From a virus, in IMG/VR virus record IMGVR_UViG_3300013233_000246, positions 29,126-93,125 of that record: a stretch of 64,000 nt of DNA. One strand, 5' to 3'. Positions 34,435 to 46,480 of the stretch are shown here, piece after piece. The notes under the pieces were generated by a model that saw only the letters and a list, made by a program, of their open reading frames with translations, was not told the origin of the DNA and ran no database searches. The position numbers and the translations under genes were made by a program. Positions within the stretch are counted from its first letter, which is position 1, and every line of letters begins with the position of its first letter.

Positions 34435-35049
34435 GTGAAAGTTAATGATATTCTTTGCGAAGCCAATCGTAACAAAATAATTTTAGTAGACTTTCAACCA
34501 GTATATCTAAATGGTGGTTATGGTCACGACGAAGCCCTAGAAAATGTAATAGAATCCCTCAATAAAATGAACCCTACGGATATTTTAGTATTTTATAATG
34601 GCGAAGAAGTTAGTATTGAAGATACATCTGATGAAGTTTTACAAATGTACATTGAACGTGGTTTAGATGAAAACATCGCAAGTAATATGAAATTTCGTGA
34701 AAAGTCTTATGCATGGCTTCGTAATTTTATGGACGCTGGTATGGACGCTTCGTTGATAATTGCTATAATAAGATACATGGCAATGAACAGAATAAATGAT
34801 TCGCGAGATATAGATCCAGAAACGATGTCTAGTATAATAGGTAAAGAAAACTACGAAGAATGGGAAGATCTTATTGAAGGTGGTGGTATGATTAATATAC
34901 CAGACATAGCAATTGATGAATTGAAGGCAATGTCCGGTGCGTTAATTGGCGGTGGTGGTGAACATGAATGTCTTAAAGAAATTCAATTGCTTATGAACGC
35001 ATTCAATATAAAATACAAAGAAGTTCAAGATTGGATTTACGGTGGTTGA
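34435..35049 (+). CDS. isochorismatase/cysteine-hydrolase-like protein
   Basis: ILVDFQ, EKSY, GGGEHECL suggest a D-K-C triad. Confidence 0.5.
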   Translation: MKVNDILCEANRNKIILVDFQPVYLNGGYGHDEALENVIESLNKMNPTDILVFYNGEEVSIEDTSDEVLQMYIERGLDENIASNMKFREKSYAWLRNFMDAGMDASLIIAIIRYMAMNRINDSRDIDPETMSSIIGKENYEEWEDLIEGGGMINIPDIAIDELKAMSGALIGGGGEHECLKEIQLLMNAFNIKYKEVQDWIYGG

Positions 35050-35081
35050 TAAATTATTTTTAAAAATAATTAAAAAAAGAG

Positions 35082-35110
35082 TTGACAAATGAAAAAAGGT
35101 GGTGTATAGT
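35082..35110 (+). promoter_or_regulatory. sigma70 promoter of the tRNA array
   Basis: A-rich UP element, TTGACA-17-TATAGT. Confidence 0.8.
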
Positions 35111-35216
35111 CCACACCATACCTGCAAAGACAAATGAAAAGTTTTTTGCAACAAGCATATATAGTATTAAGAGACAAATAAATTTTAACGCGGAAACGCA
35201 TACAAAAGAGAACGTA

Positions 35217-35372
35217 ATGACTTCAACAATAAGACAATATACAAACTGGTTATTTATGCAACCCTTACATCAAGGGCAGAGTTCATTGCGTCCATGTTCT
35301 ATAGATATGGAACTACGAGGTTATGAACCTAGTAAGCCTTTTGTGGCGGATTCAAAGGAGAAAACATACTGA
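35217..35372 (+). CDS. putative attenuator leader peptide (51 aa)
   Basis: Short ORF containing the antiterminator strand 35332-35345. Confidence 0.6.
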   Translation: MTSTIRQYTNWLFMQPLHQGQSSLRPCSIDMELRGYEPSKPFVADSKEKTY

Positions 35373-35401
35373 TAAAGTAGCAATCTCGAAAAGAATTTCA
35401 C

Positions 35402-35433
35402 AAAAGGCTTACCCAAAAAGGTAAGCCTTTTTT
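35402..35433 (+). terminator. intrinsic terminator with a competing antiterminator
   Basis: aaaaggcttacc-caaaaa-ggtaagcctttt + T; 5' arm also complementary to 35332-35345. Confidence 0.85.
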
Positions 35434-35446
35434 GCGTTTGGAGGAT

Positions 35447-35590
35447 ATGAAAATGTTACATAAGTTTTTAAAAGTTTTCATTATCAAAGTAGAACGACAA
35501 GTGAAAGCTAAAGTGGCTCTAACACCACTACAACGAAAGTTGTTAATGTTAGAAATGAAGAAACGAAGAGAACTTAAGAATCAGAGGTAA
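35447..35590 (+). CDS. small basic protein (47 aa)
   Basis: GGAGG SD; MKMLHKFLK...KKRRELKNQR. Confidence 0.45.
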   Translation: MKMLHKFLKVFIIKVERQVKAKVALTPLQRKLLMLEMKKRRELKNQR

Positions 35591-35808
35591 TTAGCGGAAC
35601 GCTTAGATACTAATTACTTTGTAGAAAAACGGTTTACGTGCCACCGGTAGGGTTGAAATTCCCCCCGATCACGTAAAGGAACTTATCCTATATTTAGCGA
35701 GATAGGGTACCCACCATCGCGGAAATTGAACTGTAAAACCAGTCCCGTCAAAGTTAATTATCGTGTCGTATCGCACGTAAAAAATGGATACATGATTTTA
35801 ATATTAAA

Positions 35809-35884
35809 CTCTCTGTAGTGTAGCCTGGCAACACGGTCCGTTTGGGGCGGAGCATCGTAGGTTCAAATCCTACCAGAGAGACCA
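35809..35884 (+). tRNA. tRNA-Pro(TGG)
   Basis: Cloverleaf, TGG anticodon, CCA. Confidence 0.85.
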
Positions 35885-35889
35885 AACAT

Positions 35890-35962
35890 CGGAGTGTATT
35901 GTCAGCTTGGTCAGACGGCCGGTTTTGGATACCGGAGGCCGTGGGTTCGAATCCCACCACTC
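35890..35962 (+). tRNA. tRNA-Pro(TGG), 3' end truncated
   Basis: ccggt-TTTGGAT-accgg; acceptor 3' strand ends at CACTC. Confidence 0.7.
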
Positions 35963-36018
35963 ATTATAAGTTCAGGTATTGTACTTTGAACTTACTTAAA
36001 TATATAGAAGAATAACAG

Positions 36019-36885
36019 CTATAAAGGCACTTTATTGTATTTTTCGTTCCACTTAACTATACGGATTTTTAGTTCTTCTAATGTTATAGAACTATTTCCA
36101 TTTTTACTATTATTACCACATTTTCCGTTATGTAACATTATTTTACAGTTTGTGGGATGTGCTAATATTTTTGGATTGATTTGTTTAGAAAATCCTTCAC
36201 TAACGGAATATAAATGGTCACGCGAAACACCAGTCAAGTTTGGTTTTGGATTTTTGCTTTTATAACCATTTGGTGAATACCACCCATATTTTTCTATAAG
36301 AGCGATATCAAATTCTTCTGGATATTGATATACATTAAAATTAAAATTGCATCTAGTTCTATAATGGCGAATATTCGGTGAACAAGATTGACAATACTTT
36401 TGATAAGTTTTTGTGGCAAATTGAATACCACAACATTTACAAGTGTTTGTAACTATTATAGAATGATCTTTACCCTTGCATTCAATGCAAATATTATTTC
36501 TTTTCTTTATATTTCTATGATGTCTTACATAATAATCATTGTGACACAGATTGCATTTGGTAAATTGTATTTTGCTGAATTTTGGTTCTGAATTTCCATA
36601 TCTTCCTGTCTTTTTACGATTGGGATATATCCTGTTTCGTAGGGTGTTACCTATTTCTATATTAGTTTCGGCGGATCTTTCGCGTCTAGTGTTGTGGTGG
36701 CTTGCTGCACAAGAGCTAGAACAAAATATCTTGTAGCTACGATACGGCAATACTTCACCACAATGTTTACAATAATCAGGATTTAATAAATATTTCTTTT
36801 TATTGGCGATGGCTTTAGCACGACTGGCTGCACCTGCTCTTTTACCAAAGTTTTTATTTTGTGGTCTATTTGCTAAATTAGTCAT
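36019..36885 (-). mobile_element. HNH-like homing endonuclease with Zn-finger repeats
   Basis: CxxC and FCSSSC motifs; VSRDH...HPTNC...N..K. Confidence 0.75.
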
Positions 36886-36957
36886 ACGTAGTGTTACCTT
36901 ACTATGTATTTATGGTTCAAGTCCTACGACATACACTTAAAAATATTAAAAATTAAC

Positions 36958-37047
36958 GGAGAATGCAATAAGGTTAGCAGGTGCTGACATTGAGCTGTAA
37001 CCTCAATCCCTATGGGCATGGCGTTCGATACGACCCTTTCTCCACCA
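36958..37047 (+). tRNA. atypical tRNA-Tyr(GTA)
   Basis: ttgag-CTGTAAC-ctcaa; GGAGAA/TTCTCC-ACCA; aberrant linker and T-arm. Confidence 0.65.
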
Positions 37048-37049
37048 AA

Positions 37050-37682
37050 TTAAGTATAGTATTGTTTAATGACTTTTGAACTTCCACCGATATCGATTAT
37101 AGCTGGACGGTTTTGGTAGATTCCCCAATTTGCCAATCTTCTTAAATCTCCATGAGCAATATCATAGTTACCAATAAGGTCAACAAGACTATCAAGATAA
37201 TCATTCTCTTCAATTAATTGTTGGTATCTTTCGGTTTCTTCTGGACTTACATTAATTTTGCCTGAACCATATTCAGCAACTCGTATTGCTTCATCTGGTG
37301 TCAAACCACTAAAGAATTTTTTGAATTGTGTTGGCTTCATTTTGTCAGCCTTTTCCATATGAATCCAAACTGGTGATTCATTTTCCTCATCATAATCAAT
37401 CATGGGGATGTTAAGACCAAGACCAGTGAAATAATAGTCATCAAGCATCTGTGATTCATAATCATTTTGTGCAATGCCTTTTTTATTCTTTGCAACTTTT
37501 AAAACAGTCGGACGACCTTCATATTCAATTTCGAAGGCAACACGCGAAGATCCTGTGCCAAGTTTTTGTGCACGTTCAACAGCGTAACGGATTCTTGATG
37601 CAAACGAAGTGTTTGATTTATAAGCGGATTTATCCCAATCATCTGGTAACGGGGCTTCTTTTAAGATGTCTTTAACTTTCAT
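37050..37682 (-). CDS. protein-kinase-like phosphotransferase with MKVKDILKE N-terminus
   Basis: LGTGSSR, VLKVAK, E, HGDL...NWG, IIDIG. Confidence 0.7.
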   Translation of the reverse strand: MKVKDILKEAPLPDDWDKSAYKSNTSFASRIRYAVERAQKLGTGSSRVAFEIEYEGRPTVLKVAKNKKGIAQNDYESQMLDDYYFTGLGLNIPMIDYDEENESPVWIHMEKADKMKPTQFKKFFSGLTPDEAIRVAEYGSGKINVSPEETERYQQLIEENDYLDSLVDLIGNYDIAHGDLRRLANWGIYQNRPAIIDIGGSSKVIKQYYT

Positions 37683-37705
37683 TACTTTATTTATCAAAAT
37701 ACAAT

Positions 37706-37780
37706 GCCCTTGTGAGTCAATTGGAAACGGTCGGCCTTCTAAGCCTAACAATGCGGGTTCGAATCCTGCCAAGGGTGCCA
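37706..37780 (+). tRNA. tRNA-Arg(TCT)
   Basis: Loop CTTCTAA, GTTCGAATC, GCCA end. Confidence 0.8.
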
Positions 37781-37841
37781 AATTATGGACTGGTCTACAG
37801 TGAATGTCATGACATAGTGAAATAGAAGGCTCATCCCTTCG

Positions 37842-45355: not shown

Positions 45356-45404
45356 CAAAAAGACTTGACAAATAGGTTATGATGTGTTATAGTTGTACGC
45401 ATAT

Positions 45405-45554
45405 TCTCCGTGTAGCTCAGTTGATAGAGCGCTGCCGCTGAAGTTTCGAAACTTGGCAGAGGTCGTGTAGGAAGGTAAAGGCTTATTATTGTGTGGTGAT
45501 ATCCACATAACCGGTGCTAATACTAACCGATGGTTTGAGTCCCGCCACGGAGAC
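45405..45554 (+). ncRNA. tRNA-like RNA with ~60-nt insertion in the T-stem
   Basis: TCTCCGTG/CACGGAGA, canonical D-arm TAGCTCAGTTGATAGAGC; own sigma70 promoter 45365-45393. Confidence 0.65.
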
Positions 45555-45591
45555 TGAGGACGTTTTATTAATACTTCAAAGAGGAATAAAT

Positions 45592-46281: not shown

Positions 46282-46328
46282 TATTTTGTTGACAAATGGG
46301 TTACGTTGTGTTATAGTTTATCTTAACA

Positions 46329-46480
46329 AAGAGTGCTTACGGTGTGTGGCTGAAGCCACTGCAACGTGTAGGAAGGTAGTAATAGGGCAGACGTGTCTTA
46401 TCATTTATTATCATGCAGCCTTGCTTGTGAGTTGATTGCCCCACAAGGGAAAACATTAACCGCACACCGCAAGCACTCTT
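46329..46480 (+). ncRNA. structured ncRNA of unknown family
   Basis: Long closing stem aagagtgcttacggtgtg/cacaccgcaagcactctt; sigma70 promoter 46289-46317. Confidence 0.65.

Follow-up and report, generated by a model that had tools for sequence, protein, structure and literature searches.

A block of phage tRNA genes is preceded, on the plus strand of the DNA analysed here, by a sigma70-type promoter, a short leader ORF, a terminator, a second small ORF and a structured RNA. The window, i.e., the whole stretch that was analysed, comprises the final 64 kb of a 93-kb IMG/VR contig from a giant uncultured phage, for which CheckV estimates a completeness of 27%. A protein search identified homologues of the leader peptide of 53–72 amino acids. 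Scans of metagenomic collections yielded seven close loci (L002–L008), and three distant relatives (L009–L011) were reached through the 397-amino-acid protein encoded in the upstream flank, which is about 46% identical; the contig of L011, called G001, is complete and measures 363.5 kb. ORFs and promoters were compared in these ten relatives (seven close and three distant), and pairings and folds in nine full-length sequences. All relatives have the same order of elements: a sigma70 promoter, a GNRA-capped hairpin, an SD-like AAGG or AAGAG, an ORF of 47–53 codons, an antiterminator, a terminator, a structured RNA, and tRNA-Pro(UGG). In five of the close relatives (L002, L003, L004, L005, and L007), the contig breaks off no more than 140 nt past the leader ORF, which looks like a branching of the assemblies at this conserved element.

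Four relatives only were found in IMG/VR, and none in GTDB genomes. GenBank phages contain no relative of the leader DNA, of the leader peptide, or of the upstream gene, and the arrangement is absent from the cultured phages there. Among cultured phages, the nearest are of the jumbo type (for instance Vibrio phage 2.275.O and Atu_ph07), with DnaB helicases that are 36–40% identical.

The promoter P1 (35082..35110, +) has the form TTGACA-17-TATAGT, with an A/T-rich stretch upstream; with 11 of 12 matches, it is the best site in 15 kb, and both of its hexamers are kept in all relatives, with a spacer of variable sequence. The 5' UTR behind it contains two elements conserved in the alignment (35156..35199, +): the motif CATATATAGTATTAA (35156–35170) and a GNRA-capped hairpin (35190–35199), whose stem covaries (GCG/CGC versus GCC/GGC) and whose 3' half is missing from L008. 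At the place of these two elements, the three distant relatives carry TTGACA 17 nt upstream of TAAGAT or TAATAT, which may constitute a tandem second promoter.

The last element before the ORF is an SD-like AAGAG together with the sequence CAAAAG (35203..35210, +), here called segment 0, which is complementary to the 5' arm of the antiterminator according to predicted pairing. In the window clade, the SD-like sequence is weak: it reaches −2.9 kcal/mol, a strength that is equalled by 30% of random windows and that lies at the 35th percentile among the genes of the phage. It is average in L009–L011, and L008 has lost it by deletion; the leader ATG and the open frame are retained in 10/10 relatives. 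The pairing of segment 0 with the arm is predicted at −10 to −15 kcal/mol in 7/10 relatives; in the window it is weak (−7.6 kcal/mol), and L008 has none. This pairing of segments 0 and 2 is best taken as a possibility, given its weakness in the window and the fact that any A-rich SD pairs with CCUUUU. Another candidate, a helix sequestering the start codon (35212–35220 with 35283–35291), was dropped as unproven: it forms in the window clade only, with no single register in the other lineages.

The leader ORF (35217..35372, +) consists of 51 sense codons and TGA, followed by an in-frame tandem TAA. It is open in all relatives, where it varies between 47 and 53 codons, and every indel is in frame. 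Among L009–L011, its dN/dS is 0.33–0.75, and the C-terminal residues S-T-E-T-I are common to both clades despite five synonymous differences. From this pattern, we infer that the ORF is translated. In a profile search of 1.84 billion representatives, the peptide family comprised 15 proteins at E<1e-3, twelve of which are peptides of 45–70 amino acids, including eight new ones of 45–49 amino acids. Two peptide variants, P0004 and P0005, imply natural deletions in which parts of the switch described below are missing: one lacks the 5' strand of the terminator, and the other lacks the apical hairpin, with the result that its ORF runs through the terminator. Within the ORF, a hairpin named H1 (35281..35328, +) lies just 5' of a U-rich arm; its outer helix (TCATTGCG with TATGA) is possible in all four lineages, with slight covariation, and H1 followed by the arm is a possible pause site.

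The leader ORF could also be an ordinary early gene for a micro-protein, closed by a terminator of its own, in which the hairpin around the stop codon would only stabilise or process the mRNA (for instance as an RNase III site) and read-through would be independent of decoding speed. Strong early promoters that drive small genes are common in large phages, the peptide is conserved as an amino-acid family, and the tRNA array of the distant relatives has a separate promoter past the terminator, all of which is in keeping with this explanation. However, the family (45–53 amino acids) has no match in Pfam or PHROG, and the AlphaFold model of the peptide is of low confidence (pLDDT 60, pTM 0.18), with no confident fold.

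The conserved residues (W, CGM, SLR, DPR, YE, and PF) are distributed over some 35 residues, a span close to the length of the exit tunnel. This would also suit a terminator that is controlled by translation but through another input, either nascent-peptide arrest of the TnaC or SecM kind, triggered by a small molecule or a factor, or ribosome availability. The conservation itself counts toward such an arrest peptide, as classical attenuators usually show no conservation of their leader peptides beyond the regulatory codons. On the other side, the single copies of the rare residues W, C, Y, and D fit a constraint for a complete set of amino acids.

The 3' part of the ORF overlaps the first of two mutually exclusive RNA structures. 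Codons 39–43 form the 5' arm of an antiterminator (segment 2; 35332..35345, +), which is the exact reverse complement of 35399–35412. Between the two strands lie the inner stems and the apical hairpin of the antiterminator (35346..35398, +; predicted folds, nine sequences), with the stop codon (35370–35372) in the apical loop; the leader stop is in this loop or at its edge in 9/9 sequences. The downstream strand, segment 3 (35399–35412), is common to both helices and forms part of the terminator (35399..35433, +), with a stem of 35402–35413 paired to 35420–35431 and a T run at 35428–35433; the pairing is found in nine sequences. Chance does not account for an exact 14-nt complement over a span of about 60 nt. 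The main features had been proposed from the window alone in an earlier note: a sigma70 promoter ahead of the ORF, a 51-codon ORF at 35217–35372, an intrinsic terminator at 35402–35433, and a 14-nt complement inside the ORF that renders the two helices mutually exclusive. Each of them stood up to closer analysis, as the promoter proved to be near consensus at 35082–35110, the frame was recovered as described, the terminator has a 12-bp stem and six T, and the complementarity is exact and recurs in relatives at 11–14 bp. The note had also named conservation of the small ORF ahead of tRNA arrays, the folding of both conformers, and covariation of the two helices as checks; the first of these was borne out by the ORF being kept in seven close and three distant relatives, and the other two gave the results that follow.

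For the window, the predicted energies are −31.7 kcal/mol for the antiterminator conformer and −17.6 kcal/mol for the terminator hairpin, and the whole leader has a z of −4.5 versus shuffles. The antiterminator conformer is the more stable in 9/9 sequences (−22 to −32 versus −15 to −18 kcal/mol). Over these nine sequences, 95.1% of cells are paired in the terminator, with two-sided changes in three pairs and a covariation score that 0/500 shuffles reach. For the antiterminator, 89.6% of cells are paired, and there are likewise three compensatory pairs, one of which lies in a GTG/CAC extension outside the terminator. The three strands vary together, with TAAGCC / GGCTTA / TAAGCC in the window and CAGCC / GGCTG / CAGCC in L011, and the stems between the arms differ wholly in sequence among lineages, with a hairpin that is always formed. 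Both helices are thus kept by compensatory change, which indicates that both are under selection and implies a switch. Run on the window clade by itself, RNAalifold was uninformative, as there is hardly any variation in the core.

Predicted folding also links the two states to the position of the ribosome. In the window, a footprint mask placed at the stop codon led to the terminator fold, while masks at codons 12–34 led to the antiterminator fold. The predicted default fold depends on the clade: it is the antiterminator in the window clade, versus the SD–arm pairing together with the terminator in L009–L011.

An RNA so strongly structured, with an SD so weak, could in principle act without translation. 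A ligand, protein, or tRNA would then bind the leader RNA itself, as in a riboswitch, a T-box, or protein antitermination, and the ORF would be incidental. The core (35205–35350) shows about 98% DNA identity within the window clade, as opposed to 65–78% for the flanking genes and about 93–95% for the tRNAs, which speaks for such an element. However, no Rfam family, the T-box (RF00230) included, was matched by positions 35000–35900 at E up to 5 or by the relatives; above thresholds, Rfam 15 yielded only tRNAs. In addition, the leader of the L009–L011 clade diverges as fast as its flanks, to 72–78%, yet keeps its frame, with in-frame indels, synonymous changes, and the stop codon in the loop, and the composition signal presented below belongs to the reading frame. 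Of the explanations considered here, an RNA switch of this type is the least probable. The attenuator model preferred in this study, in which translation of the leader sets the choice between the two helices, does not in turn explain the 98% identity of the core; codon-specific constraint, overlapping structures, and recent recombination may each contribute.

The first gene past the terminator is ORF2 (35447..35590, +), which encodes a basic peptide of 47 amino acids behind a strong SD (GGAGGA) and is conserved in L009 (13495–13635) and L010 (13014–13169), with peptides of 46–51 amino acids. ORF2 has no match in Pfam or PHROG. In L009 and L010, the coding sequence of ORF2 itself contains a consensus sigma70 promoter (TTGACA-17-TATAAT); in the window, the hexamers have decayed and the residues LTPLQ are kept. 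ORF2 is followed by RNA2 (35590..35800, +), a structured RNA of about 200 nt directly 5' of the first tRNA, with covarying stems in all lineages and no match in Rfam. RNA2 has a T-loop-like hairpin (GGGTTGAAATTCCC), and in L008 and L011 its stretch GTGCCAGCC...GGTAAT may resemble the 530-loop region of 16S rRNA. The array then begins with two tRNA-Pro(UGG) genes (35809..35964, +), and it starts with tRNA-Pro(UGG) in all relatives. The first of these tRNAs (35809) is thus located 376 nt downstream of the terminator, with ORF2 and RNA2 in between.

In the window, no sigma70-like promoter was found on the plus strand between the terminator and the tRNA-Pro pair, and expression of ORF2, RNA2, and this pair would therefore depend on read-through. 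The distant relatives L009–L011 have a consensus sigma70 promoter just downstream of the terminator; since it sits inside ORF2 in L009 and L010, ORF2 would be the read-through-dependent gene in these two phages. Further strong promoters are present in the array of the window, at 45365, 46289, 47298, 53834, and 58860. The existence of such extra promoters past the terminator suggests that the switch modulates only part of array expression and is not its sole gate.

Several other features were observed in this region. Two of the promoters, at 45365 and 46289, are of the same style (TTGACAAAT...GTGTTATAGT). Each is followed by a structured RNA (regions 45365–45560 and 46289–46480), and the motif GTGTAGGAAGGTA is common to both RNAs; the stretch 45400–45560 resembles a tRNA into which about 80 nt have been inserted. 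Genes resembling an HNH homing endonuclease and a kinase lie antisense, on the minus strand (36019–37781), where they separate the tRNA-Pro pair from tRNA-Arg. At this position, L008 has a tRNA-Tyr and no insertion.

The amino-acid composition of the leader peptide is related to that of the array behind it. The earlier note had emphasized that the peptide contains all 20 amino acids, 17 of them before the antiterminator. This is true for the window, and all 20 are found within 51 residues in only 1–2% of windows or random open frames, but it is not conserved, as relatives carry 17–19. The presence of all 20 amino acids was consequently rejected as a design principle, and the note's reading of a sensor for almost any codon is not supported: the complete repertoire is confined to the window clade, and the set that is sampled amounts to roughly the 14–15 amino acids of the array. 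The observation that Lys, Val, and Ala first appear from the antiterminator on, with none of the three before codon 39, proved to be a real signal. In the stretch before the arm, A, V, K, N, and T together account for 0–5 of 35–39 residues, versus 33% expected, and from the arm on they make up 22–58%. Conversely, of 13 family peptides, 12 have the full set of 14 amino acids (P, Q, Y, E, D, H, F, L, G, S, R, C, W, and M) ahead of the arm; for a 36-amino-acid window, the null value is 0.002, although the family peptides share ancestry and their P values are not independent. These 14 amino acids are exactly the tRNA identities of the G001 array behind the leader. In the five phages in which the array behind the leader was compared (the window, L008, L009, L010, and G001), it contains no Ala, Val, Lys, or Asn tRNA, and one Thr tRNA.

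The correspondence is less strict in detail. Before the arm, the leader of the window includes three Thr, one Asn, and two Tyr residues, for which there are no tRNAs in the window; Thr and Asn had already been set apart as exceptions, and both hold, with Tyr as a third, as ARAGORN calls no tRNA-Tyr in the window. The match that had been drawn between three Arg codons and the array loses its CGT part, since no tRNA-Arg(ACG) was called by ARAGORN or Rfam. More generally, exact codon–anticodon matches are modest (19/38 in the window, versus 33% background). Amino-acid identity is conserved in the leader and codon identity is not. An ordinary micro-protein gene leaves unexplained both the set of 14 array amino acids before the arm and the avoidance of A, V, K, N, and T.

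A second leader was found in the complete genome of G001. This phage has 44 tRNA genes, which are split by amino acid into two arrays (loci L020–L023). The second array encodes Val, Ala, Thr, Lys, Asn, and Ile(GAU) tRNAs and lies 32–48 kb from the first. At its head are its own TTGACA-17-TATAGT promoter, an ORF that contains an antiterminator arm, a stop codon in the loop, and a terminator. The ORF, leader 2 (peptide P0019; L022:17224–17325, −), has 33 codons and is rich in the amino acids of the second array: 18 of the 20 first codons after Met specify those six amino acids, with several isoacceptor codons in use. Its U-rich arm, at codons 24–26, is complementary to the 5' strand of the terminator. 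When leaders and arrays were compared by composition, the counts were 33/3 versus 4/18 (Fisher 1.6e-8). The partial contigs (those of the window, L008, L009, and L010) yielded no copy of leader 2, and its back-translated pattern matched only G001 itself. G001 has in addition a third small cluster, consisting of tRNA-Arg(CCU) and two tRNAs with the anticodon CUA, which read amber codons; a tRNA(CUA) is also present in the L010 array, and these tRNAs may reflect reassignment or suppression of TAG.

Leader 2 has no sequence similarity to leader 1, with which it shares the same RNA design and to which it is complementary in composition. This combination points to the amino-acid content of the peptides, and not to an arrest motif, as the relevant property; a nascent-peptide arrest or another translational input is accordingly judged very unlikely, if slightly less so than a translation-independent RNA switch. 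It is also left unexplained by the micro-protein gene, as is the compensatory pairing of segment 3 with both of its partners, and that explanation, while the best placed of the three alternatives, is in our opinion unlikely as well. The reciprocal pairing of leaders and arrays is the strongest argument that the leaders would serve to gauge decoding by the tRNAs that they precede.

Taken together, these data make it quite probable that a ribosome-mediated transcription attenuator, multivalent and matched to its array, heads one block of phage tRNA genes. The initial proposal of an attenuation of the trp/his type is therefore retained in two of its parts, with comparison supporting its geometry and the link to a tRNA block; its extension to almost any codon is not. 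According to the model, P1 would transcribe the leader, and the ORF would sample every amino acid of the block before the antiterminator arm and stop in the apical loop. When decoding is smooth, the lead ribosome would be on or inside the antiterminator hairpin, segment 3 would pair with segment 4, and transcription would terminate at 35433. A ribosome stalled at any of codons 2 to about 34, for want of a charged cognate tRNA, would leave the arm free to pair with segment 3. Starting from inner stems that are already in place, the antiterminator would then close before nucleation of the terminator, and this would permit read-through into ORF2, RNA2, and the tRNAs. In most relatives, segment 0 (CAAAAGG, at the SD) could pair with the arm as well, and the ground state of L009–L011 would be this pairing plus the terminator.

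We infer the direction of the switch, and likewise its physiological trigger, which would be either tRNA homeostasis of the phage or the depletion of tRNAs by host defence. In functional terms, the phage probably makes more of the array tRNAs when ribosomes decode the corresponding codons slowly. A broader proposal, to which we give only a little more than even credence, is that a lineage of phages of about 350 kb splits its 40-odd tRNA genes into amino-acid blocks, each gated by its own leader with a complete set of the amino acids concerned. Such an arrangement would act as a closed-loop homeostat that tops up the tRNAs for which ribosomes are waiting, and it would also respond to host defences that cleave tRNAs.

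The tRNA genes of phages are usually viewed as helpers in codon usage or as spares against anticodon nucleases. To our knowledge, little has been described about the control of their expression. If the model is correct, the phage would measure decoding speed and tune its tRNA transcription to it, and classical attenuation would apply to the tRNA pool as well as to amino-acid biosynthesis. The element is small and modular, and the partition into two leaders and two arrays provides a built-in control for specificity.

Full-text searches of the literature yielded no leader-peptide attenuator for phage or tRNA genes. A close formal likeness is with the enterobacterial leaders trpL, hisL, leuL, pheL, thrL, and ilvL (ilvGMEDA), which also have a short promoter-proximal ORF, mutually exclusive 2:3 and 3:4 helices, and codons that name the relevant amino acids. 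As in leaders of the trp type, segment 2 has a possible upstream partner, and the ground state of L009–L011 would correspond to the trp 1:2 and 3:4 pairings; the ilv and thr leaders are multivalent, as here. However, the genes regulated by the enterobacterial attenuators encode biosynthetic enzymes, whereas those behind the phage leader are tRNAs, a small ORF, and a structured RNA. Some 14–15 amino acids are sampled once or a few times each and not in runs, and the ORF ends within the apical loop of the antiterminator and not before segment 2. Moreover, read-through is the predicted default of the window clade when the leader is untranslated, the sequence of the peptide family is conserved, and no leader in Rfam is matched.

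Attenuators that sense impaired translation through ribosome stalling are also found ahead of vmlR and bmrCD. The leader of mef(E)/mel is another attenuator driven by ribosome stalling (PMC4335068). In this type, as in the phage model, a ribosome stalled on the leader ORF favors the antiterminator and opens the terminator, and the output helps translation to recover. The difference lies in the signal and in the product: stalling in these leaders is induced by antibiotics at specific peptide motifs, whereas the composition of the phage leaders points to the supply of cognate tRNA, and the output would be tRNA. T-box riboswitches similarly report tRNA charging through a choice between terminator and antiterminator, but they bind the tRNA directly, via the specifier loop and the T-box bulge, and need no ORF.

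The closest published biology that we found is a stress-induced tRNA array in a bacterium. In Anabaena sp. PCC 7120, the trn operon, a long array of supernumerary tRNAs, is induced under impaired translation and aids survival (PMC8421152), and it is controlled by the ribbon-helix-helix repressor TrcR (PMC10272220). Control is therefore exerted in that case by a protein repressor on a bacterial array carried by a megaplasmid, whereas the arrays described here belong to phages and would be controlled by a leader peptide.
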